Below the pieces are notes generated by a model. The model saw only the letters and a program-made list of their open reading frames with translations. It searched no databases and was not told the DNA's origin. DNA of 64,000 bases, taken from an uncultured Candidatus Saccharibacteria bacterium (GTDB lineage Bacteria > Patescibacteriota > Minisyncoccia > Phycocordibacterales > CAYSCM01). Shown one piece after another: positions 126 through 58,717 of this stretch (position 1 is its first letter; each line of letters starts with the position of its first letter). Position numbers and translations under genes: made by a program. Location: positions 1-64,000 of the forward strand of contig CAYSCM010000003.1 of NCBI GenBank assembly GCA_964429815.1. Direction: 5' to 3'.

Positions 126-563
126 ATGCAGGAGCAACTCAAAAAAATTGGCAACAAGACGCTCTGTCCCATTGCGGTGATTGTGAGGAATGGAAAGATG
201 CTGATGGGTCATAGGCATTACACACCTGACAAATGGAAGAAAATTTCTGTTTGGACTGTGCCTGGCGGAAGATGCGATGATGGAGAAAAAGTTGAAGACA
301 CACTTCGTCGCGAAGTACAGGAAGAAACAGGAATAACGGATTTACAAATCTTGGAGTTTTTAGGTGAAGTCTCAGGCGCAAAGGAAGGCGACATTGTTCC
401 AATCTTTGCTTGCAATACCAGTGAGGAGCCGACGCTAATGGAACCGGAGAAGTTTTCTGAATGGAGATGGATTGATTTTGGTACATACAAGAGTGGCGGG
501 CTGGGTATATTCAATCCAAAAGCGCGAAAAGTCATAATCGCTTATATTTCAAGGCTTCAATAG
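126..563 (+). CDS. NUDIX hydrolase (AT-rich gene)
   Basis: ORF track 145 aa. Perfect Nudix box G-x5-E-x7-REVxEExGI: GRCDDGEKVEDTLRREVQEETGI. GC about 42% versus about 58% for the rest of the window. Confidence 0.85.
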   Translation: MQEQLKKIGNKTLCPIAVIVRNGKMLMGHRHYTPDKWKKISVWTVPGGRCDDGEKVEDTLRREVQEETGITDLQILEFLGEVSGAKEGDIVPIFACNTSEEPTLMEPEKFSEWRWIDFGTYKSGGLGIFNPKARKVIIAYISRLQ

Positions 564-2866: not shown

Positions 2867-3571
2867 ATGAACTCAGTGGCATTAGGAACAGCGGCAGTAG
2901 CGGGCCTGGTCTCGTTCTTATCTCCCTGTGTACTCCCCATCATTCCTGGGTTTCTCGCCTACCTTGCCGGCGCCAGCACGAAAGGGGAGGCGAGGCGGCT
3001 CGACATATTCCTCAACAGCCTTCTCTTTGTCCTCGGCTTCTCGCTTGTTTTCGCACTCCTTGGAGTTCTCCTCAATTCGATCTTGGCAGGCGCGGCGCCA
3101 GCAGTAAACGCCTGGCTTGCGCGCATCGGCGGGCTTATCATCATTTTTTTTGGCCTTTACCTCACGCGGCTTATCCGCATTCCATTCCTTGAGCGCGACT
3201 ATCAGTTCAAAGTCTCCACCCGTTTCAAATCAAGCTATATCACCTCGCTCCTCTTCGGTGCTGCGTTCGCGGCGGGCTGGACTCCCTGCGTCGGCGCGGT
3301 CCTGGGGAGTATTCTCACGCTCGCCGCGGTAAATCCCGGTTCAGCCTTCGCGCTTCTCTTTTCCTACTCCCTGGGGCTTGGGGTGCCCTTCCTTCTCGTA
3401 GGCGCGTTTACTGCCTCAGCCGATAGAGCGATAGCGCGTCTCGGCAAAGCAATCGTCTATCTGAATATCGTCTTTGGAGCTCTCCTCATTGTCATTGGAA
3501 TTTTCGCATTTACGCAAAACCTCACCCTACTATTTAATCTTTCTCTTCTTAATTCGCTTCTTCTTCGATGA
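2867..3571 (+). CDS. ccdA: cytochrome c-type biogenesis / thiol-disulfide transporter CcdA (DsbD transmembrane domain family)
   Basis: Polytopic membrane protein with the conserved LSPCVLP motif and a second Cys-containing TM (WTPCVGAVLG). Translationally overlaps the next gene (ATGA). Confidence 0.8.
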   Translation: MNSVALGTAAVAGLVSFLSPCVLPIIPGFLAYLAGASTKGEARRLDIFLNSLLFVLGFSLVFALLGVLLNSILAGAAPAVNAWLARIGGLIIIFFGLYLTRLIRIPFLERDYQFKVSTRFKSSYITSLLFGAAFAAGWTPCVGAVLGSILTLAAVNPGSAFALLFSYSLGLGVPFLLVGAFTASADRAIARLGKAIVYLNIVFGALLIVIGIFAFTQNLTLLFNLSLLNSLLLR

Positions 3572-4683
3572 TCTTCACGTGGCGCACAACCGTCTTGCTC
3601 ATAGTGGTTGCGACAATAGCCGGAGCAATACTTCTGCTTGAGCAGGCTAAACCCATGGAGGGAAGCGGTAAGCGAGTGACACTCGCGACGACGACGGACA
3701 AGGTCGCAACGTACCCACCCGCGGTTGAATTCTCCAACCCGACCGGCTTCATCAACAGCCCCTCGCCGGAGGGAAGCGACAAGCCGTTTACGCTCAAAAG
3801 CCTCATCGGCAAGAAGGTCATCCTTGTCGATTTCTGGACCTACAGCTGCATCAACTGCATTCGGACCCTCCCGTATCTCACAGGCTGGTACGAGCGCTAC
3901 CATGACAAGGGGCTCGAGATAGTCGGCGTCCATACCCCCGAGTTTGGTTTTGAAAAAGTGTACGCGAACGTGCTCGCCGCCGTACGGAAATTCGGCATAG
4001 CGTATCCGGTCGTGCTCGACAGCGATTATGGCACCTGGAGCGCATACGGAAATCAATACTGGCCGCACGAATACCTCATCGACATTGATGGCTACATTGT
4101 CGAGGACCATGTCGGGGAAGGTGGGTACGCGCAGACGGAGGAGGAAATACAGAAACTTCTTGCCGAGCGGGCGCGGCGCCTTGGCGAGGTCGTCGCGGTG
4201 TCCGGGCCGACGCTCTCTCCGAGTAAGGCGGAGCCGGCCGGACAGCATCCGCTCTCGCCCGAAACATACTTTGGCGCCGGCCGAAACGAATTTTTCGGCA
4301 ACGGTACGCAGGGAGTGGAAGGCACACAGATGTTGACTATTCCCGCCGCTACGGAGCCGGAAGAGTTCTACCTGTCGGGGAGTTGGAATTTTACCAAGGA
4401 GTATGCAAAAAATCTTACGTCAGCGCGCATCAGATACGCCTATCAGGGCGATAATTTATTTTTCGTGGCAAGCTCGGAGCGGGGCGTCACGATAAAAATT
4501 TTGCGTGACGGCAAACCGCTCTCCGCGGATATTCGCGGCGAAGATGTAGATGCCGACTCAACCGCTCACATTAAGGAAAATCGCCTTTACCGCCTCATCG
4601 AGGATAAAATGTGGGGGCAGCATACGATCGACATCCAAGTAGAGTCGCCAGGTCTCCAAGCATTTACCTTTACCTTCGGGTAA
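3568..4683 (+). CDS. TlpA/ResA-like thioredoxin-fold thiol-disulfide oxidoreductase with long C-terminal extension
   Basis: N-terminal TM anchor and a redoxin fold with CxxC (WTYSCINCIRTLP), 371 aa. About 180 aa of extra C-terminal domain of unknown fold. Confidence 0.75.
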   Translation: MIFTWRTTVLLIVVATIAGAILLLEQAKPMEGSGKRVTLATTTDKVATYPPAVEFSNPTGFINSPSPEGSDKPFTLKSLIGKKVILVDFWTYSCINCIRTLPYLTGWYERYHDKGLEIVGVHTPEFGFEKVYANVLAAVRKFGIAYPVVLDSDYGTWSAYGNQYWPHEYLIDIDGYIVEDHVGEGGYAQTEEEIQKLLAERARRLGEVVAVSGPTLSPSKAEPAGQHPLSPETYFGAGRNEFFGNGTQGVEGTQMLTIPAATEPEEFYLSGSWNFTKEYAKNLTSARIRYAYQGDNLFFVASSERGVTIKILRDGKPLSADIRGEDVDADSTAHIKENRLYRLIEDKMWGQHTIDIQVESPGLQAFTFTFG

Positions 4684-4708
4684 TTTCGTGGAAAAATAGC
4701 GCACGTTC

Positions 4709-4781
4709 GGGCCCATAGCTCAGCTGGTAGAGCGCTCCCATGGCATGGGAGAGGTCAGGGGTTCAAGTCCCCTTGGGTCCA
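4709..4781 (+). tRNA. tRNA-Ala (anticodon GGC)
   Basis: GGGCCCA acceptor pairing with TGGGTCC (G3:U70), anticodon stem CTCCC/GGGAG with loop ATGGCAT, T-arm GGGGTTCAAGTCCCC. Confidence 0.85.
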
Positions 4782-4819
4782 CCCGCATAACCTGGTAGGC
4801 AACATTCCACGTCTTGAAA

Positions 4820-4848
4820 AAAGCCGCCCGTAAGGCGGCTTTTGTGGT
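4820..4848. terminator. bidirectional rho-independent terminator
   Basis: AAAAAAGCCGCC-CGTAA-GGCGGCTTTTGT. It is T/A-flanked on both strands and sits between the + strand tRNA and the stop of a - strand small ORF. Confidence 0.75.
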
Positions 4849-4870
4849 GCTCGGGACGCGTGTCTCATCA

Positions 4871-5086
4871 CTAAAGGCTTTTTGGCGCGAGCTTCGATAT
4901 TGCCCAGGGCACAAATGCCGACAGAAAGAAAGGTGCGGATACCAAGAGAGGTATCAATCCGTGGTGTTTGTCGCCGAGATCTTTCAGGGCCGCAACGATG
5001 GTCGGCAAATAGGCGATTGCTACTAGGAGCAAAATGAACCAGCAGGTAAGAAGAGAACGTACTGTCCAGAGCTTTATGTATTTGCC
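4871..5086 (-). CDS. small two-TM membrane protein (hypothetical)
   Basis: ORF 4871..5107 (-). Likely start at MGKYIKLW, preceded by GGAGGA at Shine-Dalgarno distance. Two hydrophobic helices. The terminator lies immediately downstream on the - strand. Confidence 0.55.
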   Translation of the reverse strand, partial: GKYIKLWTVRSLLTCWFILLLVAIAYLPTIVAALKDLGDKHHGLIPLLVSAPFFLSAFVPWAISKLAPKSL

Positions 5087-5256
5087 CATTTCGTCCTCCA
5101 TTCGCATTCAACTGTGGGTAGTAAGGCATATCTGGATAATTTTGCCAACCAGGCATTATGCGACGTCGTGCAAAAAACTCGCCTCAGTCGCAAAATATGC
5201 GACTATGGAGTCGAACATTCGTTTTAACCCAATAGTTCGAATTCCGTCCGGAAACG

Positions 5257-5303
5257 GTCCACATAGCACAAAACCTGCCCTGCGGCAGGTTTTGTGCTAT
5301 GTG
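5257..5303. repeat. long perfect inverted repeat (about 20-bp stem hairpin)
   Basis: CCACATAGCACAAAACCTGCC-CTGC-GGCAGGTTTTGTGCTATGTGG in an ORF-poor 280-bp spacer. Confidence 0.7.
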
Positions 5304-5399
5304 GAAGCCGGAGCATGTCGCAAAGCGACGCGAGGCGGGGTCGAGAACACTTAGCGCGTAGCGCTTAGCAACCTAGGCCAAATCTCCTTGGGTCTGCAA

Positions 5400-5431
5400 A
5401 AGAAAGCGAGCCGCAGAGCGGCTCGCGTTTA
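5400..5431 (-). terminator. rho-independent terminator for the - strand gene 5435..6193
   Basis: On the - strand: AAACGCGAGCCGC-TCTG-CGGCTCGCTTTCTTTT directly after the stop codon. Confidence 0.75.
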
Positions 5432-5434
5432 GAG

Positions 5435-6193
5435 CTAGAGGGTAGTATCACTCCCTCCGAAATCCGGAAACACAAAGAGAATCCGGGCATCAAGCGCCGC
5501 GATCTCGCTGATGAAGGCGCGCCACGCACGGACCTGAGCGACGGCCCACGGCTCCTCCGCAAGCTCCTGCCACTCGCGTGAACCCGCACTTTCCATTTCG
5601 CTTAGCCACTCCCCTACGGTGGTTGCCTCAGACCAGACGAAAGGAGCGCCACGGATGGGGTGGTACTCTTTTCGAATGAAGTGGCGGAATCTGCGCGTCG
5701 GAAGCGCGATGCGCGCATTGTGCACTTCACGCATGTCCGTTTGGTAGTTCATCCAGAGCTCAGGTTTCTCAAAAAGCACGACATACTCTTCGCCACCACG
5801 TAGGCGTCCGTACGATGCCCCTTGTTCTTGCCACGTCCAGAGGGCGCGATCATCCTTGGGGCCGATGAGAACGAAGCGCGGAGCGAAGTTCCTCTTGCAG
5901 GGTTTTTCAAAGAGTTCGCAAAGCTTCTTGAAGAGATAGCTGAACGCACAGATACCCGCTCGCTCTTTTTGGGAATGATGGATGTGTGCGTACTCTTTTT
6001 CTGTCAGCTTGGCAAAGCGCGTGATGTAACCGAAGGAGATCGTCTCGTCCGCTCTCCACAGCGTGTAGTGCCTTTGCACTGCGGAGACTTTTTTTGCCTC
6101 CGGATTTTGAAGGATGCCGCGGCGGGACCGGGTCGCTTTAACAGCAGCGAACCGGTGCGGCTTAAGCACGACAAGTCCGGCATTAAAACCCAT
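5435..6193 (-). CDS. hypothetical protein (co-directional with folB)
   Basis: 252-aa ORF with good GC-rich codon bias. No motif I can confidently assign; ThyX-like RH..S considered and rejected. Confidence 0.55.
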   Translation of the reverse strand: MGFNAGLVVLKPHRFAAVKATRSRRGILQNPEAKKVSAVQRHYTLWRADETISFGYITRFAKLTEKEYAHIHHSQKERAGICAFSYLFKKLCELFEKPCKRNFAPRFVLIGPKDDRALWTWQEQGASYGRLRGGEEYVVLFEKPELWMNYQTDMREVHNARIALPTRRFRHFIRKEYHPIRGAPFVWSEATTVGEWLSEMESAGSREWQELAEEPWAVAQVRAWRAFISEIAALDARILFVFPDFGGSDTTL

Positions 6194-6246
6194 GAGAGTT
6201 CTCCTTATGTGTTTTGAGCTAGTGACAAAGAACTAGGCACGCCGTG

Positions 6247-6600
6247 CTAGTGCGTCTGTGAGCGCGCGATGACGACGCCGGGGGTGCCATTGCCCCAGAC
6301 GTCGGGCTTTGCGATGGTGACAGCGCATGCGACAACACGTGTGTCAGCAAGGATCGCTGTTGCTATAGTGTGGCCGATCTTTTCGATGAGGTAGGTATGC
6401 TCTCCCTCGACGATAGATCGGATGAGGTCGCGGACTGCCTTGTAATTTACGGTATCCACAAGTGAATCGCTCTCTGCTGCCTTTCTGGTGTCGACTTCCA
6501 TCCGTACGCTGATGGAAAAGCGCTGGGACGTTGTTCTTTCCTCAGGATTCACGCCGTGACGGCCGGCAAAAACCAGCTCATCGATAAAAATGGTATCCAT
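6247..6600 (-). CDS. folB: 7,8-dihydroneopterin aldolase
   Basis: 117 aa, typical FolB length. N-terminal MDTIFIDEL..GRHGV..EE and central KAAESD..VDTVNY match the FolB tunnel-fold consensus (E. coli FolB MDIVFIEQL...KAAKSDDVADCLSY). Confidence 0.8.
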   Translation of the reverse strand: MDTIFIDELVFAGRHGVNPEERTTSQRFSISVRMEVDTRKAAESDSLVDTVNYKAVRDLIRSIVEGEHTYLIEKIGHTIATAILADTRVVACAVTIAKPDVWGNGTPGVVIARSQTH

Positions 6601-6699
6601 AACTCGTGCACTAAACGAATAATCGAGTTATGGATTCGCTAGATCATGGAAGCGATTTAGATCCCTAGCATATCACAGCAGAAGGGCGCTTGGTATACT

Positions 6700-7119
6700 T
6701 TGACCATGGACCCGGAAGGGGGAGGTATCGTGGAAAAAGAGGTGCGGCGTCCGTTCCCGACGTATTTTGCGCGGCATTACTACGGCGACGTTGTGCGGTC
6801 ACTGTTCCTTGCCGCAGGGGTCATACTTATTCTCGGGGCCGCCTTTGGAGAAGGGCCGCTGACGCCACTATGGACTACCCTTACCGCACTTGCCCTGGCG
6901 CTGTTCGCCGGCATCACGAATCCACGGCGGCGCTCAATAGCAATAGTCGATCTTCTTATCGCGATCGGTGGACTTTTGATATTTGCATATTCTGCCCTCG
7001 CTTTGTACCAAGGCGGCGCGGACACGATCTCCATCTTCGAGCGCTCGGTGCTTGCTCTATTGTTTTTCTTTGCGCTTTACTACAGCGCCAGAGCGCTTCG
7101 CGGCAGTGTGTCGGGTTGA
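6700..7119 (+). CDS. hypothetical membrane protein (4 predicted TM)
   Basis: Hydrophobic helices (LFLAAGVILILGAAF, LTALALALFAGI, LLIAIGGLLIFAY, LALLFFFALYY), 139 aa. Confidence 0.55.
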   Translation: MTMDPEGGGIVEKEVRRPFPTYFARHYYGDVVRSLFLAAGVILILGAAFGEGPLTPLWTTLTALALALFAGITNPRRRSIAIVDLLIAIGGLLIFAYSALALYQGGADTISIFERSVLALLFFFALYYSARALRGSVSG

Positions 7120-7226
7120 CAGGAATTGTTGCGGTAATCGCTAGGGCGGCGCTTCGTCTTTATACACAGGCCGGGACCGGCTTCTGGGGCACAATAGTCC
7201 CAGTTATTACAAATTAACCTGAAAGT

Positions 7227-7910
7227 ATGCCCATAGCCATTATAATCGCGCTCTTGCTCGCCGGAGGGATTTCCGTCGGGGCCCAGAGCGCAACACCCGG
7301 TTCGCTCCTCTATCCGGTGAAGACCGGCATCAATGAACAAATCGAGCAGGCGCTCGCATTCTCGACCGAAGGGAAGGCAGGCGTCCACGCGGAGCTCGCC
7401 GGACATCGTCTGGAGGAAATGGAAGAGGTCTCAGCGCAGGAGAATGTCAACCCGGACGTCATTGCGAGACTCAAGGCGCAGTTTGAAGATCAGGCCAAGC
7501 AATTCGATGAGATTGTCGCTCGACTGAAAGCGCAAGGTAACGACACCGCCGCGGCGCACGTCTCGGCTGCGTTCAATGATGTAATCGCGACGCACGAGGC
7601 TCTTATCGCCAAGCTGACCGCCGAGGCATCGACGACCAGCTCGATCGGCGACTCCGTGAAAGTGGACCTCGACGACGTCCTCGAGTCGCTCAGGGAACAC
7701 AAGGCTCATAATGAGGAAATGCGCGCCAGTTCGTCCGAAGAGACAGACATGAATTCCGATGATTCCTCGTCGGACGGGAACGACGAGACTGGCGACTCCA
7801 CCGACGGTACGGAAGATATCCACATGCGGACCGGCACCTCGGTCAATTCGGAGCATGCCACAAGCGGCATACGGATCGATACAGAGGGAGCGGGACACGT
7901 CGGCATTTAG
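7227..7910 (+). CDS. secreted acidic protein, DUF5667-like
   Basis: Signal peptide, then the PGSLLYPVK motif typical of the CPR-enriched DUF5667 family, a coiled-coil middle region, and a D/S/E-rich acidic tail. Confidence 0.6.
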   Translation: MPIAIIIALLLAGGISVGAQSATPGSLLYPVKTGINEQIEQALAFSTEGKAGVHAELAGHRLEEMEEVSAQENVNPDVIARLKAQFEDQAKQFDEIVARLKAQGNDTAAAHVSAAFNDVIATHEALIAKLTAEASTTSSIGDSVKVDLDDVLESLREHKAHNEEMRASSSEETDMNSDDSSSDGNDETGDSTDGTEDIHMRTGTSVNSEHATSGIRIDTEGAGHVGI

Positions 7911-7920
7911 GGGTATTTTT

Positions 7921-7957
7921 TGAACCGACCGGCATCTTCGTGCCGGTCGGTTTCGTT
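7921..7957 (+). terminator. rho-independent terminator
   Basis: GAACCGACCGGCA-TCTTCG-TGCCGGTCGGTTTCGTTTCC. Confidence 0.8.
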
Positions 7958-7996
7958 TCCACACAGTGACGCTTCTCCACGGCGCCCCATGATACG

Positions 7997-8503
7997 ATGA
8001 AAAGAATGGAAGGACTTCTGTACCTCGTAGAGCGTCTGGGAGTTGCATTGACCTTCGCCGCGTCGGTGTTTTACATAGCATTTTATTTTTCCTCTATCCG
8101 CGACGGGGTTATCGACGCGACCGAGCGTCGTTTCATGCACATCGGCTACCAGTTGCTTAGGATAGGGATGGGTTTTATCGTCACGACTTCCCTCATCGCT
8201 CTTTTGCGCGCCCTTATTGGCGGGAGCCACCTCAGCGACTTGTTCTGGTTCTTACTCTTCCTTCTTGCGGTCATGCTCGGCAACGAGGTTCTCCTCGCCC
8301 TTCACCGCGAGCCCAACTGGCTCTCCCCCTTCCTTCAGGCCTCATCCTGGTACGCCTACTTCACGGCCTATACGCTTATGCCGACCTCTTCGTTCCTGAC
8401 ACTTGTCGTCTACTATCTGGTCTGGCTCCTCGTCGCGCTCGTCGCATTCAATCTCATCAAGGCACGTATTGCTACGCAAGCGCTACCTCCGACTATCACG
8501 TAA
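7997..8503 (+). CDS. hypothetical membrane protein (4–5 TM)
   Basis: 168 aa, very hydrophobic. Overlaps the next gene start. Confidence 0.55.
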
Positions 8504-11307: not shown

Positions 11308-12258
11308 ATGAATCCCGAGGTCAAGCCACGCATGACCCCCAAGGATTTTTTCCTTTGGGTCGGCGCCATGGTCACGCTCTACGGCAGCGTCGTTGCGTTC
11401 ATTGCGCTCCTCTTTCAGTACATCGATTATGCCTATCCAGATAACCTACAGGCGTACATCGACCCCTACTCGGGTGCCATTCGCATTTCGATGGCCTCCC
11501 TCATCGTTCTTTTCCCGATATTCCTCCTCCTCATGCGGCTCATTCGTCGAAGTGTCGTCGTCGACCCCACCCGGGTCGATATATGGATACGCCGATGGGC
11601 CCTCTACCTCACGCTTTTCATAGCGGGAGTGACGCTCGCTATTGACCTTATCACCCTTATCAATACGTTCCTCGGCGGGGATCTTACGACACGGTTTGTA
11701 CTCAAGGTCGTCGTCGTATTTCTTGTCATCGGTGCAGGGTTCCTCCATTTCCTCTCAGACTTGTGGGGCTACTGGAACCGCTACCCGTCGCGTGCCCGTT
11801 CCGTCGGTTACGCGGCCGTCATTGCCATTATTGCTGCTATCGTCGGAGGGTTCCTTATCATCGGCTCTCCAAGCTCGCAACGATACATGCGTTTTGATGC
11901 GCAGAAGGTAAGTGACCTCCAGAGCATTCAGTGGCAGATCGTCTCATATTGGCAGCAGAAGCAAAAGTTGCCCGGGAAACTCAGCGACCTCGAGGACCCC
12001 ATCCAAGGTTTTATAGTTCCCAAGGACCCCCAGGGTAGCGTGCAGTACGCCTACACCTCGACCGGCCCGCTGTCGTTTACTCTCTGCGCATTGTTTAATC
12101 GCGCCAATGCGACTGGTCAGGGGGTTTCAACCGAACCGGCGCGCTCCCCCTCCGTGGGTATTGATGAAAATTGGGCGCACACTGCAGGCAAGGTATGTTT
12201 TGAGCGCACGATCGATCCTGAGCGTTATCCACCGTTTCAAAAAACAAAAGCTTTTTAG
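11308..12258 (+). CDS. hypothetical membrane protein (5–6 TM and C-terminal soluble domain)
   Basis: 316 aa with multiple hydrophobic helices. The C-terminal about 110 aa are hydrophilic. Confidence 0.55.
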   Translation: MNPEVKPRMTPKDFFLWVGAMVTLYGSVVAFIALLFQYIDYAYPDNLQAYIDPYSGAIRISMASLIVLFPIFLLLMRLIRRSVVVDPTRVDIWIRRWALYLTLFIAGVTLAIDLITLINTFLGGDLTTRFVLKVVVVFLVIGAGFLHFLSDLWGYWNRYPSRARSVGYAAVIAIIAAIVGGFLIIGSPSSQRYMRFDAQKVSDLQSIQWQIVSYWQQKQKLPGKLSDLEDPIQGFIVPKDPQGSVQYAYTSTGPLSFTLCALFNRANATGQGVSTEPARSPSVGIDENWAHTAGKVCFERTIDPERYPPFQKTKAF

Positions 12259-12292: not shown

Positions 12293-12584
12293 GAAGGTCT
12301 AGCCAACCGTTCCACCAGCTTATTCCCACCAGGACTATTGCTAAAGCGATCAGCATCAGTGGAGTAAGCCACAGATTTAGAAAGAAAAGAACGACGCCTA
12401 TTGCCGCCGAAGTCACAGCAAACGCAATAAATGGCGTGTGCTCCCTCGCCTCGACGAACAGGGTTATCGATAGCTGGAAGATGAGATAAATCAAGAAGGT
12501 AAGCACATAGTCTTGCCAGATGACAGCACTCATCGAAACCTCCTTAATCGACCCACCAAATTCGATGCTAGCAATAAGTTGCAT
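12273..12584 (-). CDS. small membrane protein (hypothetical)
   Basis: 103-aa ORF with three hydrophobic helices. True start may be the internal MSAVIW (about 12533). Confidence 0.5.
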   Translation of the reverse strand: MQLIASIEFGGSIKEVSMSAVIWQDYVLTFLIYLIFQLSITLFVEAREHTPFIAFAVTSAAIGVVLFFLNLWLTPLMLIALAIVLVGISWWNGWLDLQNTPRR

Positions 12585-12626
12585 TTTTGCAAGGCTGTGG
12601 CCTTATGCTACGCTTTGAAAATCGTT

Positions 12627-15515
12627 ATGGAAAAGTACGACCCCGCAGGGATAGAAAAAAAATGGCAAGACCGCTGGGACGAGGAGCAACTCTATAAAAC
12701 GCCGGAAAAACCTGGCAAGGATAAATATTACACACTCGTTATGTACCCCTATCCCTCGGGAGACGGGCTCCATGTCGGGCACGTCGAGAGCTACACCGCG
12801 GCGGACATCGTCGCGCGATACACTCGCATGAAGGGAAAAAAAGTGCTCAACCCGATGGGATGGGATGCGTTCGGGCTACCCGCGGAGAACTACGCAATTA
12901 AGACAAAGATCCATCCACGGATAACTACAGAAAAAGCCATCGAGAATTTCCGCCGGCAGATTAAATCCCTCGGCCTCTCCTATGACTGGAGTCGTGAGAT
13001 CGGCACGCACACTCCCGAGTACTACAAGTGGACGCAATGGTTTTTCCTGCTTCTCTATAAAAAAGGTCTTGCGGAGCGCAAATATGCAAAGGTCAACTGG
13101 TGCCCTAAGGACCAGACCGTACTCGCGAATGAGCAGGTCGTTGACGGACACTGCGAGCGCTGCGGGACAGCGGTAATTCAAAGGGATCTTGAGCAATGGT
13201 TTTTCAAAATCACAAAATACGCGGAAGAACTTCTTGCCGATCTGGATCTTATTGATTGGCCGGAGTCCACTAAGGCTGTCCAGCGTCATTGGATAGGTAA
13301 ATCGGAGGGAGCAGAGATTGACTTCGAATTGAAATTTCTCAAAAATCCCGCTGATAATGAACGCCGCGACCCAGAGGGGAAGAAGGCTCACCTTAGCGTT
13401 TTCACCACACGTCCTGATACCCTCTACGGGGCGACCTACCTCGTGCTCTCTCCGGAGCATTTGTGGGTTACGCTCGCGACCGATGATCAGCACGACGCAC
13501 TCCTTAATGCAGATGAGGTCAAAAAATATGTCGAAGAGAGCGCCAAAAAAACCGAGCTTGAGCGTACAGGCCTCAATAAAGATAAAACTGGCGTAAAAAT
13601 CGAGGGAGTTGTTGCCATCAATCCTGCGACGAAAGAAGAAATCCCCATTTTTGTGTCTGATTTCGTACTTGCACAGTACGGCACCGGAGCCCTTATGGCC
13701 GTACCGGCTCACGACGAGCGCGACTTTGAGTTTGCGCAAAAGTTTAATCTGCCGATTCGCTATGTGGTAAAACCGCAGCGCGTCGATTACAAAAATCCGC
13801 ATCGGAGCAGGAAGGAGATGACGCGACGCAACATTATCATTGGCATTGTGCGCGATCCGAAAGCAGAAAAATACCTGGTTCTCAAGTGGCGTAAGCAGCC
13901 GTGGACCACCTTTATCACGGGCGGAGTTGAAGAAGGGGAGGATATTGTAGAAGCGGCGAAGCGCGAAATCACCGAAGAAACCGGGTACAAGAATCTAAAG
14001 CTTGTCCGCGTGCTCGGTGGACCGACCGAGGCGCACTTTTTTGCGGCGCACAAGGATGTCAATCGCATCACGGAAGCGAATCCCATTCTTTTTGAAATTG
14101 AAAATGAGGAACGGATTCCTCTCGGCGCCGAAGATGTCGATCAGTACGATATGGCGTGGCTTACGCTCTCTCAACTTAAAGCTGCAGGGCTTCAGCATGC
14201 CGAGTCGGATATTATTCTTAGTCGCCTTGAGACCGGCATTGATGTATATACGGGTCCAGGTATTCTCATCAACTCTGGCACGTTTAATGGAAAGGAAAAC
14301 GAGTCTTCAAAAAAAGCGATTGTAGCCTCTGTTAAAGGCCATCTAAAAACCACGTATCGCCTTCGTGATTGGCTGGTATCCCGCCAGCGTTATTGGGGTG
14401 CCCCTATCCCCATCATCTACTGCGAGAAATGTGGTATGCAGCCGGTCCCCGAGAAGGATTTGCCGGTGCTCCTCCCCGACGATGTCGATTTCATGCCGAC
14501 CGGCGAGTCACCGCTTGCGCGCTCGAAAAGTTTCCATGACGTGACATGTCCTAAGTGCAAAGGCTCGGCGCGACGTGAATCGGATACCATGGACACGTTT
14601 GTCTGCTCGAGTTGGTATTACTTCCGATTTGCCGATCCGCATAACCATAAAGAGTTCGCTTCGAAAGGTGAAATAAAAAAATGGCTCCCGGTCGATCTCT
14701 ATGTTGGTGGGGCGGAGCACACCGTACTGCATCTGCTCTATTCGCGCTTTTTTACCAAAGCGTTGCGAGACTTTCACTATGTGAATTTTCCCGAGCCGTT
14801 TCTCAAGCTGCGCCATCAGGGCATTATTCTCGCTGAGGATGGACGCAAGATGAGCAAGTCGCTTGGCAACGTGGTGAATCCCGATGACATCGTCGCGCGC
14901 TTTGGTGCCGATTCGATGCGCCTCCATGAGATGTTTTTGGGACCTCTCGAAATAGAAAAGCCCTGGAGCACCAAAAATATTATCGGGGTGCGACGTTTTA
15001 TTGAGCGTGTTTGGAAGCTCCGTGAGAGCGTTACCCCAACAGGAAAGCTCTCTAAGGCTGTCGATGTGGAGCTCAACCGCACCATTAAGAAGGTGGGTGA
15101 AGATATTGAAGGGTTTAAGTTCAATACGGCAGTGAGTCAACTTATGATCCTCACGAATGCACTTGAGACCGAGCGGCAAATACCGGTTTTGGCCTACAAG
15201 AATCTCTTGCGTATTCTTGCGCCTTTTGCTCCCCACGTGACTGAAGAACTCTGGGAGAGTTTCGGCGAAGGAGAGTCGATACACAAAGAAAATTGGCCCC
15301 CCTTCGATAAGGGAAAACTGGTGAGCGACACGCTAACCATCGCAGTGTTGGTATCGGGAAAGGTTCGGGCGACACTAGCTGTCCCGGTTGGAGCAGCTGA
15401 GCCAGAGATCGAGTCCCTAGCGAGAAAGCTACCCGAGCTCGGGAAGTGGATGGGCGGTAGGATACCTAAACGGGTGATCCACGTGCCCGGAAAGCTTGTC
15501 AATTTCGTCCTGTAG
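12627..15515 (+). CDS. leuS: leucyl-tRNA synthetase with a NUDIX hydrolase domain inserted in the CP1/editing region
   Basis: Start at MEKYDPAGIEKKWQ (the track ORF opens at 12513, but homology begins here). HVGH, editing-domain TTRPDTLYGATY and GTGALMAVPAHDERDFEFA, Zn-knuckle CEKCG...CPKCKG, KMSKS. Between ...NLPIRYVVKP and GILINSGTFNG, about 160 extra aa carry a perfect Nudix box GGVEEGEDIVEAAKREITEETGY. Confidence 0.9.
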   Translation: MEKYDPAGIEKKWQDRWDEEQLYKTPEKPGKDKYYTLVMYPYPSGDGLHVGHVESYTAADIVARYTRMKGKKVLNPMGWDAFGLPAENYAIKTKIHPRITTEKAIENFRRQIKSLGLSYDWSREIGTHTPEYYKWTQWFFLLLYKKGLAERKYAKVNWCPKDQTVLANEQVVDGHCERCGTAVIQRDLEQWFFKITKYAEELLADLDLIDWPESTKAVQRHWIGKSEGAEIDFELKFLKNPADNERRDPEGKKAHLSVFTTRPDTLYGATYLVLSPEHLWVTLATDDQHDALLNADEVKKYVEESAKKTELERTGLNKDKTGVKIEGVVAINPATKEEIPIFVSDFVLAQYGTGALMAVPAHDERDFEFAQKFNLPIRYVVKPQRVDYKNPHRSRKEMTRRNIIIGIVRDPKAEKYLVLKWRKQPWTTFITGGVEEGEDIVEAAKREITEETGYKNLKLVRVLGGPTEAHFFAAHKDVNRITEANPILFEIENEERIPLGAEDVDQYDMAWLTLSQLKAAGLQHAESDIILSRLETGIDVYTGPGILINSGTFNGKENESSKKAIVASVKGHLKTTYRLRDWLVSRQRYWGAPIPIIYCEKCGMQPVPEKDLPVLLPDDVDFMPTGESPLARSKSFHDVTCPKCKGSARRESDTMDTFVCSSWYYFRFADPHNHKEFASKGEIKKWLPVDLYVGGAEHTVLHLLYSRFFTKALRDFHYVNFPEPFLKLRHQGIILAEDGRKMSKSLGNVVNPDDIVARFGADSMRLHEMFLGPLEIEKPWSTKNIIGVRRFIERVWKLRESVTPTGKLSKAVDVELNRTIKKVGEDIEGFKFNTAVSQLMILTNALETERQIPVLAYKNLLRILAPFAPHVTEELWESFGEGESIHKENWPPFDKGKLVSDTLTIAVLVSGKVRATLAVPVGAAEPEIESLARKLPELGKWMGGRIPKRVIHVPGKLVNFVL

Positions 15516-15585: not shown

Positions 15586-16611
15586 ATGCAAATGAGCCTC
15601 AAACCGAAAATCGTCGTTAAGCGCCTCCTGGCGGCGCTTCCGGAGCGCGCTCGAGACGTTCTTATCGGCCGCTACGGTCTGGGGCCCGATGCGTCGCGTA
15701 TGACTCTCGAGGCAATAGGGGAAAAATACGACATCACGAGGGAGCGTGTGCGCCAGATAGAAAATTACGCCATCGCGACCATAAAAAAGTCCGAAACGTT
15801 CAAGAAGGAGGGGACTGCATTTTCCGAACTCCATGCAGTGATCGATGGCATGGGAGCCATCGTGCCGGAGGATGAGCTTCTCGAAAATCTCTCGAAAGAC
15901 GAGAGCACTCGCAACCACCTCCTCCTTCTTTTGGTCCTTGGTGACCAATTCAAGCGTCTCAAAGAGGACGAGGAATGCGAAACCTGCTGGGTTATCGACC
16001 CCGAGCTCGAGCGGCGCGTGCGCGGCTCCATGCGAAAAATCTACGAAAAACTCGCCGATGACGAGCTTATTCCCGAAGGGCAGCTCATTGACTCCTTCCT
16101 CAACGAAATGAAGGACCTCAACCAGAAATACAAGGACCAGGAGGTCGTAAAACGTTGGCTTTCGACCAGTAAAAAGATCGGCCGCAACCCCTTGGGCGAA
16201 TGGGGCCGTTCTCACTCGCCTAACGTGAAAGTGAAGGGCATGCGTGACTACGCGTATCTTGCCATCAAGCGCCACGGCTCCCCGATGCACTTTCGGGAAG
16301 TTGCCAAGGCCATCGAGCGGCTTTTTGGAAAGCGCGCGCACGAGGCAACCACTCACAATGAGCTCATCAAAGATCAGCGTTTCGTCCTCGTCGGCAGAGG
16401 TCTTTATGCGCTCAAGGAGTGGGGCTACAGCGCCGGCGTCGTGAAAGATGTCATCCGCGACGTACTCAAGAAATTCGGGCCTCTCTCTCGCGAAGAGGTC
16501 ATCGACAGGGTCAAAAAGGAGCGCTACGTCAAGGACAATACTATCGTCGTCAACCTTCAAGACCCGGCGACCTTCCGAAAGACCAAGGACGGCAAATACG
16601 CACTGGCTTAA
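15586..16611 (+). CDS. sigma-70 region-4 domain / HARE-HTH domain fusion protein (minimal sigma-like factor)
   Basis: N-terminal residues about 10–70 match sigma-70 region 4.1/4.2 (ERARDVLIGRYGL...MTLEAIGEKYDITRERVRQIENYAIATIKK). C-terminal winged-HTH of HARE type (YAYLAIKRHGSPMHFREVAKAI...QRFVLVGRGLYALKEWGY). No region 2. Terminator follows. Confidence 0.75.
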   Translation: MQMSLKPKIVVKRLLAALPERARDVLIGRYGLGPDASRMTLEAIGEKYDITRERVRQIENYAIATIKKSETFKKEGTAFSELHAVIDGMGAIVPEDELLENLSKDESTRNHLLLLLVLGDQFKRLKEDEECETCWVIDPELERRVRGSMRKIYEKLADDELIPEGQLIDSFLNEMKDLNQKYKDQEVVKRWLSTSKKIGRNPLGEWGRSHSPNVKVKGMRDYAYLAIKRHGSPMHFREVAKAIERLFGKRAHEATTHNELIKDQRFVLVGRGLYALKEWGYSAGVVKDVIRDVLKKFGPLSREEVIDRVKKERYVKDNTIVVNLQDPATFRKTKDGKYALA

Positions 16612-27870: not shown

Positions 27871-29724
27871 ATGACGATTTCCGAGGTACGAAGCAGATAC
27901 CTCGAGTTTTTCAAAAGGCGGGGGCATACGGTGATCCCGTCGGCTTCGTTGCGCCCGGAAAACGATTCGACGACCCTCTTTACGGGCTCTGGTATGCAAC
28001 CGCTCTTGCCGTATCTTCTGGGATCTCCGCACCCACAAGGGAAGCGTCTTGTCGACTCTCAAAAATGCTTTCGCTCGATGGACATCGAGGAAGTCGGAGA
28101 CAATCGTCACACAACATTTTTTGAAATGCTTGGCAATTGGTCGCTCGGCGATTATTTCAAACAAGAGCAAATTCCGTGGTTCTTTGAATTTCTTACTGAA
28201 GAAATCCGGCTTGATCCAAAAAATCTTTACGTGACAGTTTTTGCTGGTGACGAGAAAAACAACATTCCCCGTGATGATGAGGCAATGGGGATTTGGAAAA
28301 AGTTGTTCAAAGGGAAGGGAATCGAGGCAAAGGATGTCGTTATAGGCGCTGAGATCAACGGGTATGAAAAGGGAATGCAGGGCGGGCGCATTTTCTACTA
28401 TGACGCGAAGAAAAACTGGTGGAGCCGCTCCGGAGTGCCGGAGAACATGCCCGCAGGTGAGCCGGGGGGCCCAGATTCAGAAGTTTTTTATGACTTTGGA
28501 GGGCTACACAACGAAAAATTTGGGAAACATTGCCATCCTAACTGCGATTGCGGACGGTTTCTCGAGATAGGGAACTCGGTCTTTATGGAGTACTTAAAAA
28601 ATCTTGACGGCACGTTCAGCAAACTTCCCCAGAAAAACGTCGACTTCGGCGGCGGGCTCGAACGCATAGCCGCTGTCTCCCAGAACGAACCGGATGTTTT
28701 CAAGGCAGGATATGCAGAGATCCTAAAATCCGTCGCGCTTCTATCGGATAGAGCATACGAAGGGCACCAACGCCAGTTCCGCATCATTGCAGATCATCTG
28801 AAAGCAGCAGTTTTCCTCATTGCGACAGGCGTGCTGCCAAGCAACGCTGAGGCCGGATATGTTGTGAGACGACTTTTGCGTCGTGCGATACGCTACGCGG
28901 ACCAGCTGGGAGTTGCTGTTAACAGTCTGCATCGTCTTGTCGTTAGCATTACAACGCAATATGCCAAAATTTACCCTGAGCTCCAGCAGGAGGGGCGGGT
29001 TATAGAGGAAGTCATCCAGAAAGAAGAACGACAGTTTCGCGCAACCCTCGGGCTCGGAATGCGAATGTTCGACAAACTGAAGGGAAAAAAAATTTCAGGC
29101 CCCGACGCGTTCAAGCTGTTTTCCACGTATGGATTCCCACTCGAGCTGACCACGGAAGTCGCCCGGGAACGAGGCCTAGACGTTGATGAGGACAGCTTCC
29201 GCGTTGAAATGAAAAAGCACCAAGATTTCTCTCGAGCCCGCTCCGAACAGAAATTTAGAGGAGGTCTTGCGGACCACTCCGAAATGTCGGTGAGATACCA
29301 TACTGCTACCCACCTCTTGCACCAGGCGCTACGTGATGTTTTGGGACACGGAGCTCTCCAAAAGGGAAGTAATATCACTCCTGAGCGGCTTCGGTTTGAC
29401 TTTGCCTATCCGCGGAAAATGACTGATGAGGAAAAAAGGAAAGTTGAGGATATCGTGAACGCTCGTATTGCTGAAGCACTTCCCGTTTCTTACGAGGATA
29501 TTCCGTTGGAAGAGGCACAAAAGCGAGGTGCGATCGGTCTTTTTGAAGAAAAGTACGCAGACAAGGTGCGGGTCTATAAAGTGGGCAAGTATTCGCTTGA
29601 GTTTTGTGGGGGGCCGCATGTGACGAACACCGCGAAGCTTAGCGTCGACGGTAAAAGGTTTCGCATCGAGAAAGAGGAGGCGATATCCGCAGGAGTGCGG
29701 CGTATCAGAGCTGTGTTTGCGTAA
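27871..29724 (+). CDS. alaS: alanyl-tRNA synthetase, short form lacking C-Ala domain
   Basis: Class II catalytic core (FTGSGMQP, GNWSLGDYFK), tRNA-recognition and editing domain (HTATHLLHQALRDVLG...CGGPHV), 617 aa. It ends about 250 aa earlier than canonical bacterial AlaRS. Confidence 0.9.
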   Translation: MTISEVRSRYLEFFKRRGHTVIPSASLRPENDSTTLFTGSGMQPLLPYLLGSPHPQGKRLVDSQKCFRSMDIEEVGDNRHTTFFEMLGNWSLGDYFKQEQIPWFFEFLTEEIRLDPKNLYVTVFAGDEKNNIPRDDEAMGIWKKLFKGKGIEAKDVVIGAEINGYEKGMQGGRIFYYDAKKNWWSRSGVPENMPAGEPGGPDSEVFYDFGGLHNEKFGKHCHPNCDCGRFLEIGNSVFMEYLKNLDGTFSKLPQKNVDFGGGLERIAAVSQNEPDVFKAGYAEILKSVALLSDRAYEGHQRQFRIIADHLKAAVFLIATGVLPSNAEAGYVVRRLLRRAIRYADQLGVAVNSLHRLVVSITTQYAKIYPELQQEGRVIEEVIQKEERQFRATLGLGMRMFDKLKGKKISGPDAFKLFSTYGFPLELTTEVARERGLDVDEDSFRVEMKKHQDFSRARSEQKFRGGLADHSEMSVRYHTATHLLHQALRDVLGHGALQKGSNITPERLRFDFAYPRKMTDEEKRKVEDIVNARIAEALPVSYEDIPLEEAQKRGAIGLFEEKYADKVRVYKVGKYSLEFCGGPHVTNTAKLSVDGKRFRIEKEEAISAGVRRIRAVFA

Positions 29725-44158: not shown

Positions 44159-45439
44159 ATGGCACGAACGCTTATACAAAACCTCAAAGAACGCGCAGGG
44201 CAGGAGGTAACCATCGCTGGGTGGATCGATGTACGTCGGGATCAGGGGAAAATGATTTTTTTTAATTTTCGTGACCGCTCTGGGAAAGTACAAGGAGTTG
44301 TGCTCCCGAAAAGCGCGGCGATGGAGGTGGCAAAGGACATTCGCAACGAATTTGTCGTTGAGGCAACTGGGCGTGTAAACATGCGTCCCGAGAAAAATAT
44401 TAATCCTGAGGTGCCAAACGGCGATATCGAGCTTGAGGTTCAGGGTTTAATTCTTCTCTCAAAGGCCGAGGTTCCTTTCGAGCTTAACGCGGACGTGAAT
44501 ATTGATACCTACCTTGATCATCAGCCCTATACGCTACGCAGTGAGAAAGCAAGGCGCGTTTTCAAACTTCAAGAACTCATTATCGAGGGATTCCGGGAAG
44601 GAATGCGGAGGCAAGATTTCACTGAATTTCAGGCACCAGCCCTTGCGGGAGCTGATGCGGAGGGCGGCGCAGCGGCCTTTGAAGTGTCGTACTACTACGA
44701 CCGCAAAGCCTACCTGGCAACGTCACCGCAACTCTATAAGCAAATAATGGTCGGCGTGTTCGAGAGAGCTTTTGCGACTCCAAAGGTATTTCGTGGTGAA
44801 AAGCACGCAACGACGCGGCATCTTTCCGAGTATAGCTCTATGGATTTTGAAATGGGCTTTATAAAGGATCACACCGAGGTCATGGCAGCTCTTGAGAACA
44901 CCATGCGACACATCGTTCATAAATCCGGCCTCCCGGTGATGCTTCCGACTGCTTTTCCCATACTCAAGTTACGAGAGGCCCAAAAGATTCTGGGAGTATC
45001 CATGGAGGCACCCGATCTTGAGCCAGAACACGAGCGCGCTCTGTGTGAATGGGCCTCCAAAGAACATGGCTCCGACTTTATTTTTGTCACGCACTATCCG
45101 ATGAGTAAGCGTCCCTTCTATACCTACGAGGACGAGAGTGACCCTGGTTACTCAAAAAGTTTTGATCTACTATTTCGTGGCCTTGAAATCTCTACAGGCG
45201 GACAACGTATCCACCACTACGATGAGTTGATTGAGAAGGTGAGGGCACGGGGCCTCGATCCAGAGAAATTTGGCTTTTACCTGGAAGCCTTTAGGGTTGG
45301 CATGCCCCCTCATGGTGGTTCTGCTACAGGTCTTGAGCGCTTAACGGCGCGAATGCTTAATCTTCCAAACGTCAAAGAAGCGACGCTCTTTCCGCGCGAT
45401 CTTACAAGAATCGACCGCCTCCTCTCACAGGGGGAGTAG
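44159..45439 (+). CDS. aspS: aspartyl-tRNA synthetase, short archaeal/eukaryal-type (probably non-discriminating)
   Basis: OB-fold N-terminus. Class II motifs: QSPQ-type LATSPQLYKQ, motif 3 GMPPHGGSATGLERL. 426 aa without the bacterial GAD insertion. Confidence 0.8.
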   Translation: MARTLIQNLKERAGQEVTIAGWIDVRRDQGKMIFFNFRDRSGKVQGVVLPKSAAMEVAKDIRNEFVVEATGRVNMRPEKNINPEVPNGDIELEVQGLILLSKAEVPFELNADVNIDTYLDHQPYTLRSEKARRVFKLQELIIEGFREGMRRQDFTEFQAPALAGADAEGGAAAFEVSYYYDRKAYLATSPQLYKQIMVGVFERAFATPKVFRGEKHATTRHLSEYSSMDFEMGFIKDHTEVMAALENTMRHIVHKSGLPVMLPTAFPILKLREAQKILGVSMEAPDLEPEHERALCEWASKEHGSDFIFVTHYPMSKRPFYTYEDESDPGYSKSFDLLFRGLEISTGGQRIHHYDELIEKVRARGLDPEKFGFYLEAFRVGMPPHGGSATGLERLTARMLNLPNVKEATLFPRDLTRIDRLLSQGE

Positions 45440-51307: not shown

Positions 51308-52657
51308 ATGTTCGGAATTTTCGGAGACAGAAGGAAAGACGTAGTCACCCGATACGCACCCAGCCCTACCGGTAAACAGCACGTGGGTGGCATTCGAACG
51401 GCGCTCTACAACTACCTCTACGCCCGCCAGCATGGTGGTACCTACATCTTACGCTCCGAGGACACAGACAAGGCGCGTTCGAACAAAGAATACGAGGATT
51501 ATTTTTTAGAGCTCTTTTCCTGGCTTGGACTCGAGCATGACGCTTTTTATCGCCAATCAGACCGAACGGCAATCTACGCACGACATCTCGATGCGCTTAT
51601 CAAAAAGGGGAGCGCCTACGTCTCCTTTGAAGAGCCTCGGGAGCCGAAAGGTCGAGCGCGCGTGATTCGTTTCAAAAATCCAAGTAAGAAAATAACTTTT
51701 GTGGACGTGGTGTTGGGGGAGGTCACGTTCGATACTACCGAACTCGGTGATTTTGTAATAGCGCGGAGTTTTGAGGAGCCACTTTATCATTTTACAGTCG
51801 TCGTCGATGATTTTGAGATGGGCGTTACCCACGTTATCCGCGGCCAGGAACACCTTTCTAACACTCCTCGCCAAATTCTCCTTCAGGAGGCCATCGGGGC
51901 AGGGCGCCCCGTCTACGCTCATGCGTCTGTCATTCTCAATGAAGAACGGGAAAAAATGAGCAAGCGCGATCCTCTGGTGCGCCCTGCGCTTGAATACCGG
52001 GATGAAGGCTACCTTCCTGAGGCGCTTCTCAATTTTATGGCTTTTCTCGGCTGGAACCCGGGTGGAGAGAGGGAAGTGATGAGCCTTACCGATCTCGTAA
52101 GGGCTTTTAGCTTGGAGCGTCTTCACAAGCACGGAGCCGTTTTCAATCCTGAGAAGCTTTTGTGGTTCAATCGTGAACATATGCTGCGACTTTCCGACCA
52201 AGAGTTTGATGCCGCTCTGGTGCCATTTCTCGACGCTCATTCATTTGAACTTTCACGCTATCGAAAACTCATTCGCGAACGTTCCTCGACGTTCAAGGAA
52301 GCCGCGGATTTTCTTCGTTCCGGAGAATTTTCATACTTAGTTGAGCGTCCTACGGTAGAGGCAGCAAAGCTTCCTTGGAAAAACGACGGCGCTTCGGTCG
52401 TACGGAAGCATTTGGATGTTGTGCTGTCCATGGTAATAGCACTCGATGCGCGTCCGACTGTAGATCGGGCGAAGTCCCTCATCTTCCCGTACGCCGATAG
52501 AGAGGGGAGGGGGAGCGTGCTATGGCCACTTCGATATGCGCTGTCCGGCCGGGAAAAATCCCCGGACCCCTTTGAGCTTATTGCCCTGCTTGGCCGTGAC
52601 GAGTCCCGAGCGCGCATTGAGCTAGCGCTAACAGCGCTTGCGGCACCTACGAAATGA
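51308..52657 (+). CDS. gltX: glutamyl-tRNA synthetase
   Basis: TRYAPSPTGKQHVGG (HIGH-class), RSEDTD, KMSKR. No Zn-binding Cys cluster. Confidence 0.9.
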   Translation: MFGIFGDRRKDVVTRYAPSPTGKQHVGGIRTALYNYLYARQHGGTYILRSEDTDKARSNKEYEDYFLELFSWLGLEHDAFYRQSDRTAIYARHLDALIKKGSAYVSFEEPREPKGRARVIRFKNPSKKITFVDVVLGEVTFDTTELGDFVIARSFEEPLYHFTVVVDDFEMGVTHVIRGQEHLSNTPRQILLQEAIGAGRPVYAHASVILNEEREKMSKRDPLVRPALEYRDEGYLPEALLNFMAFLGWNPGGEREVMSLTDLVRAFSLERLHKHGAVFNPEKLLWFNREHMLRLSDQEFDAALVPFLDAHSFELSRYRKLIRERSSTFKEAADFLRSGEFSYLVERPTVEAAKLPWKNDGASVVRKHLDVVLSMVIALDARPTVDRAKSLIFPYADREGRGSVLWPLRYALSGREKSPDPFELIALLGRDESRARIELALTALAAPTK

Positions 52658-58616: not shown

Positions 58617-58717
58617 ACGAATCTAATTATCGCAAACCAAGACGTCCCCCGCAAATGCCGTTGCGGTTCCGTGATGCGCGCGCGAGTGTTAAACTTGCTA
58701 ACATCGCCTCTACTCGT

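Follow-up and report, generated by a model that had tools for sequence, protein, structure and literature searches.

The leuS gene of an uncultured Candidatus Saccharibacteria bacterium raises the question of whether a bacterial leucyl-tRNA synthetase (LeuRS) can carry a second enzyme inside its own proofreading domain, and what that enzyme would do there. The gene is located at positions 12627..15515 (including the stop codon) of a window of 64,000 nucleotides, which is the whole stretch of DNA analysed here (assembly GCA_964429815.1, contig CAYSCM010000003.1, positions 1 to 64,000 of the forward strand); all features of the window given below are on the forward (+) strand. An earlier interpretation made from the letters of the DNA, hereafter the sequence-only reading, had proposed that a Nudix hydrolase domain is inserted in the CP1 editing region of an otherwise canonical bacterial LeuRS. 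The proposal was borne out by the present analysis, which showed that the nested domain is real, folds in an AlphaFold2 (AF2) model, keeps its metal-binding and catalytic residues, and is subject to purifying selection.

A Nudix domain nested in the CP1 editing domain of LeuRS

The open reading frame holding LeuRS extends from 12513 to 15515, and the true start is the ATG at 12627, which gives a protein of 962 aa. The bacterial leuS model TIGR00396 matched the protein with 1000.8 bits (cut-off, 548.4) in two stretches with the insert between them, and the Pfam scan returned the class I catalytic domain, the PF13603 editing domain, the anticodon-binding domain, and NUDIX PF00293. The synthetic site is represented by the HVGH (HIGH) signature (aa 49-52; 12771..12782), in which H49, G51, and H52 are kept in 119-120 of 121 orthologues, and by the KMSKS loop (aa 741-745; 14847..14861), in which K741, M742, S743, and K744 are kept in 117-119 of them. 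Within CP1, the TTRPDT motif (aa 260-265; 13404-13421) and the AVPAHDERD motif (aa 358-366; 13698-13724) were found; T260, T261, R262, D264, T265, H362, D363, R365, and D366 are invariant in all 121 orthologues, P263 and E364 being the exceptions within TTRPDT and HDERD (aa 362-366). We take the T-rich motif and the catalytic Asp to be the equivalents of T252 and D345 of the E. coli enzyme.

The AF2 model of the full-length protein had a mean predicted local distance difference test score (pLDDT) of 89.1 and a predicted TM-score (pTM) of 0.77, and a Foldseek search with it gave TMt values of 0.84 to E. coli LeuRS (4aq7) and 0.81 to 2bte. Compared with the bacterial LeuRS of E. coli (4AQ7) and T. 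thermophilus (1H3N/2BYT), to which it is 35-39% identical, the protein has the same domains in the same order, namely a Rossmann core with HIGH and KMSKS, CP1, the anticodon-binding domain, and the C-terminal domain. The difference is the insert, as none of the solved LeuRS structures has an enzyme domain nested in CP1. Every feature of sequence and fold that marks a bacterial LeuRS was thus present in the host protein, and both its synthetic and its editing site are predicted to be intact.

The position of the insert was determined from the editing domain model and from an alignment with T. thermophilus LeuRS. The N-terminal five-sixths of CP1 (aa 220-383; 13284..13775) was recognised by PF13603 with 184 bits. 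The match covers aa 220-402, corresponding to profile positions 1-160 of 185, and because it breaks off at position 160 the insert must be within CP1. In the alignment, aa 220-382 match residues 221-363 of the T. thermophilus enzyme and the match resumes at aa 540 with residue 376, so that about 157 residues (aa 383-539) stand in place of a 12-residue loop (residues 364-375). The C-terminal remainder of CP1 and the return to the catalytic core follow at aa 540-580 (14244..14366, VYTGPGILINSG ... YRLRDWLVSRQRYWG). The T. thermophilus editing domain presumably spans residues 224-417, which would place the replaced loop well within it. The junctions of the insert are ...VVKP|QRVD... and ...DVYTG|PGIL..., and the closest LeuRS without the insert, P0031 (809 aa) and P0038 (810 aa), have 8-15 residues at this site. 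The protein is therefore nested at three levels, with CP1 set in the Rossmann fold and the Nudix domain set in CP1. The sequence-only reading had described the domain as grafted onto the editing site; it is indeed inside the editing domain, but the loop that it replaces is 17-28 residues past the editing Asp in sequence (D347 in T. thermophilus, D366 here).

The nested domain itself (aa 384-539; 13776..14243) consists of an N-terminal linker, an alpha/beta/alpha core, and two C-terminal helices. PF00293 scored 57.0 bits in the whole protein (aa 403-524) and 61.0 bits on the insert alone (13776-14256), against a gathering score of 21.1. The latter interval was that of the sequence-only reading (residues about 384-545) and is right to within a few residues. 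The Nudix box GGVEEGEDIVEAAKREITEETGY (aa 432-454; 13920..13988), identified from the translation, matches GX5EX7REUXEEXGU at all specified positions and deserves the name of a textbook box given to it earlier. Downstream of it, a K476-x-x-N479-R480 motif (14052..14066) is specific to the subfamily and provides candidate substrate-binding residues. The insert was also modelled on its own with AF2 from 38 homologues, of which 37 are nested inserts and one is the free-standing protein P0002; the model had a mean pLDDT of 95.5 and a pTM of 0.88, and showed the full Nudix sandwich, with the box on a loop-helix-loop, followed by the two C-terminal helices. In the full-length model, the insert had a pLDDT of about 87-95.

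The unusual length of the gene might have suggested an assembly chimera, an intein, or another mobile insertion without function in the protein; apart from that length, nothing speaks for it. The reading frame is open throughout, GC content shows no break at the insert, and the identical 962-aa gene was also called on a separately assembled 98-kb Logan contig (SRR12313482_1682, from run SRR12313482). The insert is common to hundreds of homologues with the same junctions, the Pfam scan of LeuRS returned no Hint/intein family, and the domain is under purifying selection (see below). Both chimera and intein were accordingly rejected, in agreement with the sequence-only reading, and an insertion of this kind has next to no probability.

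Conservation, distribution and probable exchange of the nested domain

The 121 orthologues are only about 40% identical within the Nudix domain. In the box, G432 is kept in 99%, E447 in 99%, E450 in 97%, E451 in 99%, and G453 in 97% of them, while E438 (77%) and R446 (79%) covary to a Q plus M/A/T variant that still keeps E447, E450, and E451. The subfamily positions R401, W421, W426, K476, N479, R480, and W511 are kept at 88-99%, with N479 at 95% and R480 at 90%. Column counts over 509 Nudix domain instances placed K476 in 493 of them, and the seven box positions checked (G-E-R-E-E-E-G) were intact in 348 of the 390 copies at the site of this insert (site B). Gut genomes labelled Bacilli, described below, have K-Y-F where the others have the K-N-R motif. 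The ratio of nonsynonymous to synonymous substitution rates (dN/dS) in the two least saturated gene pairs was 0.14 and 0.115 for the Nudix part and 0.05 for the rest of the gene; judging from these rates, the Nudix part is under purifying selection that is 2-3 times more relaxed than that on its host. A pseudo-enzyme was rejected in view of the retained catalytic box residues, and the nested domain is apparently active.

PF00293 was found in 117 of the 120 best LeuRS homologues (45-61% identity), which carry the names Parcubacteria, Paceibacterota, Minisyncoccota, Gracilibacteria, Moranbacteria, Gribaldobacteria, and 'Patescibacteria group'. A word-indexed search with the insert alone gave 3 proteins, while a complete HMMER scan against 1.84 billion representative proteins gave 444 clusters (50% identity) at E<=1e-3, of which almost all are LeuRS. 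Among 269 Nudix-positive proteins fetched, 232 are LeuRS; the other 37 have no LeuRS flanks and are mostly free-standing proteins of 160-180 aa, together with a few short fragments. In GTDB species genomes, a search with an 8-sequence alignment detected 152 loci that encode a relative of the insert. Eighty of these were kept, and almost all of them are LeuRS with Nudix at the same site, a few (e.g., L029 and L053) being free-standing genes. The LeuRS loci span Buchanan-, Taylor-, Berkel-, Magasanik-, Kaiser-, Adler- and Peribacteria. LeuRS-Nudix loci labelled Gammaproteobacteria, Methanosarcinales, Woesearchaeota, or Muribaculaceae were also observed (L007, L034, L038, L050, L051, and L078), and these are probably mis-binned or mislabelled contigs of the candidate phyla radiation (CPR).

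A second group of carriers consists of gut metagenome-assembled genomes (MAGs) labelled Bacilli, Erysipelotrichaceae, or Mycoplasmatota (L052, L059, L061, L065-L068, L070-L073, L075-L080, and P0276-P0395). A search from one of these LeuRS returned more than 100 near relatives, all with PF00293 and one named Candidatus Onthocola (Bacilli incertae sedis). The Bacilli-labelled LeuRS bodies have identities of 45-52%, the same range as deep CPR splits in this comparison made without outgroup sequences, and the architecture could have reached the group by horizontal transfer of leuS or by shared ancestry. These results show an inherited LeuRS-Nudix architecture that spans Patescibacteria and a set of Bacilli-labelled gut MAGs.

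The sequence-only reading had considered this architecture undescribed. A full-text search of 7.7 million papers and preprints turned up no description of LeuRS with a Nudix domain, and NCBIfam has no model for the combination, though it has one for IleRS with a GNAT domain. The architecture is, on the other hand, lineage-wide and already present in public databases, where PF00293 has been precomputed on these LeuRS entries without remark. Such proteins are often named merely 'class I tRNA ligase family protein' by NCBI, because the insert leads annotation pipelines to downgrade these genes.

The evolution of the insert was compared with that of its host. The identities of host body and Nudix domain are weakly correlated (Mantel r 0.16, a value reached in 0 of 500 permutations), and P0008, the nearest neighbour by host, shares 66.6% identity in the body and 32.5% in the Nudix domain. 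Three LeuRS that are about 65% identical in the body, as close as any, have no Nudix domain at site B. Free-standing members of the subfamily (160-180 aa) are 45-62% identical to particular nested copies, while different nested types average only 40% identity to one another. The module has thus been lost more than once, and it has probably been exchanged or replaced more than once as well. Its absence from close relatives means that LeuRS does not require it to function. The discordant evolution, the absence from three close relatives, and the interleaving with free homologues therefore argue that the module is autonomous and stands outside the editing mechanism. A leuS-nusB-nudix-rnc neighbourhood (L018, L025, L028, and L048) was considered as the donor of the insert and rejected, since its downstream Nudix belongs to a different, generic family with weak, box-level similarity to the insert.

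Nor is the Nudix domain the only module in these proteins; it belongs to a broader set of hydrolase modules that are nested in LeuRS, and it is not peculiar to one genome. In the numbering of the present LeuRS, the start of CP1 (about aa 236-255) is occupied in relatives by one or two additional Nudix domains, by a Ser_hydrolase/alpha-beta hydrolase, or by Ham1; the sites at about aa 556, 603-607, and 640-650 by an alpha/beta hydrolase, HAD, or domains of no recognised family; and that at about aa 805 by Ham1. Examples are P0059 (aa 239-446), P0163 (aa 957-1178), P0130 (aa 651-846), P0009 (aa 238-421), and P0208 (aa 559-749), with modules of the Ham1/ITPase (PF01725), HAD phosphatase (PF13419), and Ser_hydrolase/alpha-beta hydrolase (PF06821) families. 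Nested inserts of 116-264 aa in P0188 (aa 237-360), P0152 (aa 605-735), P0079 (aa 700-815), and P0193 (aa 703-966) had no Pfam match. The same Nudix subfamily also occurs where CP1 begins and close to the leucine-specific region, with 2-3 copies per protein, and relatives bear up to five extra modules. In L016, P0023, P0024, P0077, and P0084, whose LeuRS are 1,477-1,735 aa long, two Nudix domains are at the CP1 start and one is at the site studied here; the last four also bear alpha/beta-hydrolase families. The largest is the L016 LeuRS of a Taylorbacteria MAG (3230-8434; 1,735 aa), which has three Nudix domains and further large inserts, one of them akin to the HAD module of P0130.

Candidate substrates and function

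The substrate class was approached by comparison with characterised Nudix enzymes. The best profile matches among PDB sequences were the decapping Nudix AvrM14 (2.9e-8) and the Lupinus diadenosine tetraphosphate (Ap4A) hydrolase (8.3e-8). By this measure, the nearest characterised relatives of the insert appear to be the group of diadenosine polyphosphate (ApnA) hydrolases, RppH, and decapping enzymes, which includes T. thermophilus Ndx1 (1VC8), M. tuberculosis Rv2985 (9CXX), the Lupinus enzyme (1F3Y), E. coli RppH, and flax-rust AvrM14 (8DP8). These enzymes are free-standing and have low identity to the insert, whereas the insert is nested in LeuRS; the signature of K476/N479/R480, R401, W421/W426, and W511 sets the LeuRS-associated subfamily apart from them as its own.

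The region past the Nudix box was also compared. A Tyr located 16-18 residues downstream of the box is reportedly the signature of ApnA hydrolases, as it is said to have been given by Dunn et al. in 1999. In about 95% of the 509 copies, F or Y occupies positions +17 and +18 (Y in 47% and 58%, respectively), and we take this aromatic pair to occupy the place of that Tyr. ADP-ribose pyrophosphatases are marked by a Pro that is conserved about 16 residues past the box. No conserved Pro was found at +15 to +17 in the 509 copies, in which these columns are H/A/S, H/E/K, and F/Y.

The best explanation overall, to which we would give a probability of about 0.55, is that the leuS product is a functional LeuRS with a nested autonomous Nudix pyrophosphohydrolase, for which an Ap4A-type substrate is the most likely. 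The product would combine a working bacterial-type synthetase with a catalytically competent Nudix domain in a surface loop of CP1. The module would merely be tethered to LeuRS, with no part in proofreading, so that it would be made in fixed proportion to LeuRS, and the surface loops of LeuRS in this lineage, those of CP1 included, may form a platform that tolerates small hydrolases of nucleotides and esters. The chemistry, the weakest step of the proposal, would be the Mg2+-dependent hydrolytic cleavage of a dinucleoside polyphosphate, for example Ap4A/ApnN; a related alternative would be a 5'-polyphosphate or Np4-capped RNA end and, after that, general (d)NTP house-cleaning. Ap4A-type substrates are favoured as the leading guess because the nearest characterised relatives are ApnA hydrolases and RppH, and among the functions that the sequence-only reading had suggested, Ap4A seems to be the one best matched by these relatives. 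Aminoacyl-tRNA synthetases produce Ap4A from aminoacyl-adenylate and ATP, and a module clearing Ap4A/Np4N is therefore the most economical specific hypothesis.

Several observations weigh against this assignment. The present LeuRS has F-F at +17/+18, that is, Phe and no Tyr. The NCBIfam equivalog models scored the insert far below their cut-offs, with 25.3 bits against 116 for RppH (NF001938), 22.9 against 148 for MutT (TIGR00586, NF008044), and 20.0 against 95 for NudI (NF012016), and NudE was likewise far below its cut-off. Because the insert falls short of what defines RppH, MutT, NudI, and ADP-ribose pyrophosphatases, it was assigned to none of them. The structural neighbours are spread with similar scores over NudI, MutT-like, and ADP-ribose pyrophosphatase specificities. 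The top fold match, the free-standing E. faecalis MutT/Nudix family protein 2AZW, which is 14% identical to the insert, is a structural-genomics entry for an uncharacterised protein, and its match therefore carries no functional information. To our knowledge, LeuRS is not among the synthetases known for strong Ap4A production. Finally, the near-exclusive association of the subfamily with LeuRS could reflect a LeuRS-specific role, which a passive platform leaves unexplained.

A view that accommodates such a role, and which we hold tentatively, is that LeuRS of Patescibacteria and of gut Bacilli with reduced genomes is a modular, multifunctional synthetase with exchangeable hydrolase cartridges, in which the CP1 Nudix domain would have been retained universally for a LeuRS-linked job. 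The cartridges (Nudix in one to three copies, Ham1, HAD, and alpha/beta serine hydrolase) would swap with free-standing genes, and the job could be the clearing of synthetase-made Ap4A/Np4N, decapping or processing of RNA 5' ends, or destruction of a nucleotide-type inhibitor or signal. The main rival to the Ap4A-type assignment is nucleotide-pool sanitation, which is favoured by the co-occurring Ham1 and HAD modules but appears doubtful on the whole. The nested Nudix would then be a MutT/NudI-like (d)NTP pyrophosphatase linked to LeuRS by co-expression alone, and LeuRS would be its carrier, together with Ham1 (ITP/XTP) and nucleotidase-like HAD modules, in organisms living on salvaged nucleotides. 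In keeping with this, close relatives can dispense with the insert, the best fold matches include NudI and MutT-family structures, and the sole whole-domain NCBIfam alignment was that to MutT (insert aa 16-147), though with an E-value of just 6e-5. The low MutT and NudI scores given above (23 and 20 bits) speak against sanitation, as do the best sequence-profile matches, which are decapping and ApnA enzymes and no MutT; moreover, the window already encodes a separate generic Nudix, and it would be unexplained why LeuRS is the only carrier.

The remaining explanations were considered less probable. That the Nudix fold has become a non-catalytic module for tRNA or nucleotide binding, regulation, or dimerisation has precedents in the Nudix-like domains of NrtR and mitoribosomal L46; it is unlikely here, given that the three catalytic Glu and both box Gly are retained at 97-99% in domains of such low mutual identity and that even variants with E438Q plus R446M/A/T keep E447, E450, and E451. 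A part in LeuRS proofreading, in which the Nudix domain hydrolyses misactivated aminoacyl-adenylates, as the sequence-only reading had suggested, or otherwise aids CP1 editing, is agreeable with the location of the insert so near the catalytic Asp in sequence and with a subfamily almost confined to LeuRS, but was given little credence. Nudix enzymes cleave pyrophosphate bonds, whereas aminoacyl-AMP carries an acyl-phosphate bond, and hydrolysis of this substrate is chemically unlikely because it has no pyrophosphate bond. The same domain is present at other LeuRS sites in several copies, is missing from LeuRS that are just as close and have an intact CP1, and evolves discordantly with its host; and the CP1 hydrolytic site is fully conserved, so that there is nothing for the Nudix domain to replace. 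Slightly less probable still is a conflict or antidote module, in which exchangeable hydrolases on LeuRS would destroy nucleotide-type toxins or signals, such as aminoacyl-nucleotide antibiotics or alarmones. A module that is discordant with and faster than its host, gained and lost, multi-copy, and exchanging with free genes would fit such a role; the NCBIfam entry 'ileS_w_GNAT' shows that synthetases with built-in small-molecule-modifying domains exist and may be an analogue, and the solved LeuRS structure 3zgz holds the toxic moiety of agrocin 84, a leucyl-adenylate mimic. Such adenylate mimics have no pyrophosphate bond, however, dN/dS is well under 1, and no defence-type context was seen around leuS, the PADLOC library not having been searched.

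The combination has partial counterparts among known proteins. The NMN adenylyltransferase/Nudix protein NadM-Nudix (NF003786) and IleRS-GNAT (NF040702) likewise join a nucleotidyltransferase of the HIGH superfamily and a small accessory enzyme in one polypeptide. The matches of the present LeuRS to these models are weak, with 16.6 bits against a cut-off of 397 and 69.8 bits against a cut-off of 1999, respectively. Here, the Nudix domain is nested within a domain that is itself inserted (CP1).

The acquisition of extra domains by aminoacyl-tRNA synthetases is seen mainly as a eukaryotic route to new functions. In the present case, an essential bacterial synthetase bears a second, apparently active enzyme nested in its proofreading domain, and this arrangement has been conserved throughout a very large radiation of uncultured organisms; it should surprise synthetase specialists, although insert and host both come from well-known families. 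Action of the Nudix domain on synthetase by-products such as Ap4A or Np4-capped RNA would tie tRNA charging directly and physically to the metabolism of alarmones or nucleotides. Were the domain simply a tethered house-cleaning enzyme, minimal genomes would package maintenance enzymes onto an essential gene. The insertion also marks a permissive site in CP1 for protein engineering and is relevant to boron-based LeuRS inhibitors aimed at CP1.

Genomic context of leuS and of free-standing relatives

No Nudix-related or nucleotide-metabolism context was seen in the genes neighbouring leuS, which encode a DUF5671 membrane protein (11308-12258) and a 341-aa protein with sigma-70 region 4 and a faint HARE-HTH match (15586-16611). 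A free-standing Nudix gene (126..563; 146 aa) with the canonical box GRCDDGEKVEDTLRREVQEETGI lies outside LeuRS, so that the genome encodes two or more Nudix enzymes. Its product matched the insert profile weakly (E 1.8e-9) and was far below all NCBIfam equivalog cut-offs.

The gene context of free-standing subfamily members in other genomes is inconsistent: the member in L053 follows pth, that in L029 is adjacent to a gene resembling a low-molecular-weight phosphatase gene, and that in L082 is adjacent to an alginate lyase gene. In L053 (3385-3966 and 3947-4468), the free-standing Nudix gene overlaps the 3' end of the apparent peptidyl-tRNA hydrolase gene, and the flanking open reading frames resemble HisRS, deformylase, and formyltransferase, all as judged by eye. 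This setting, observed at a single locus, would be a translation-related neighbourhood.

Other synthetases encoded in the window are AlaRS (27871-29724; 617 aa), a class II Asx/Lys-type enzyme (44159-45439; 426 aa), GluRS (51308-52657; 449 aa), and CysRS (58655-60190; 511 aa). All four are compact and have no extra domains; the accretion of domains is therefore specific to LeuRS here. Together with the nearest homologues, these compact synthetases suggest that the organism is a small-genome member of the Patescibacteria. The AlaRS seems C-terminally short when compared with E. coli AlaRS, which we take to be about 870 aa long.

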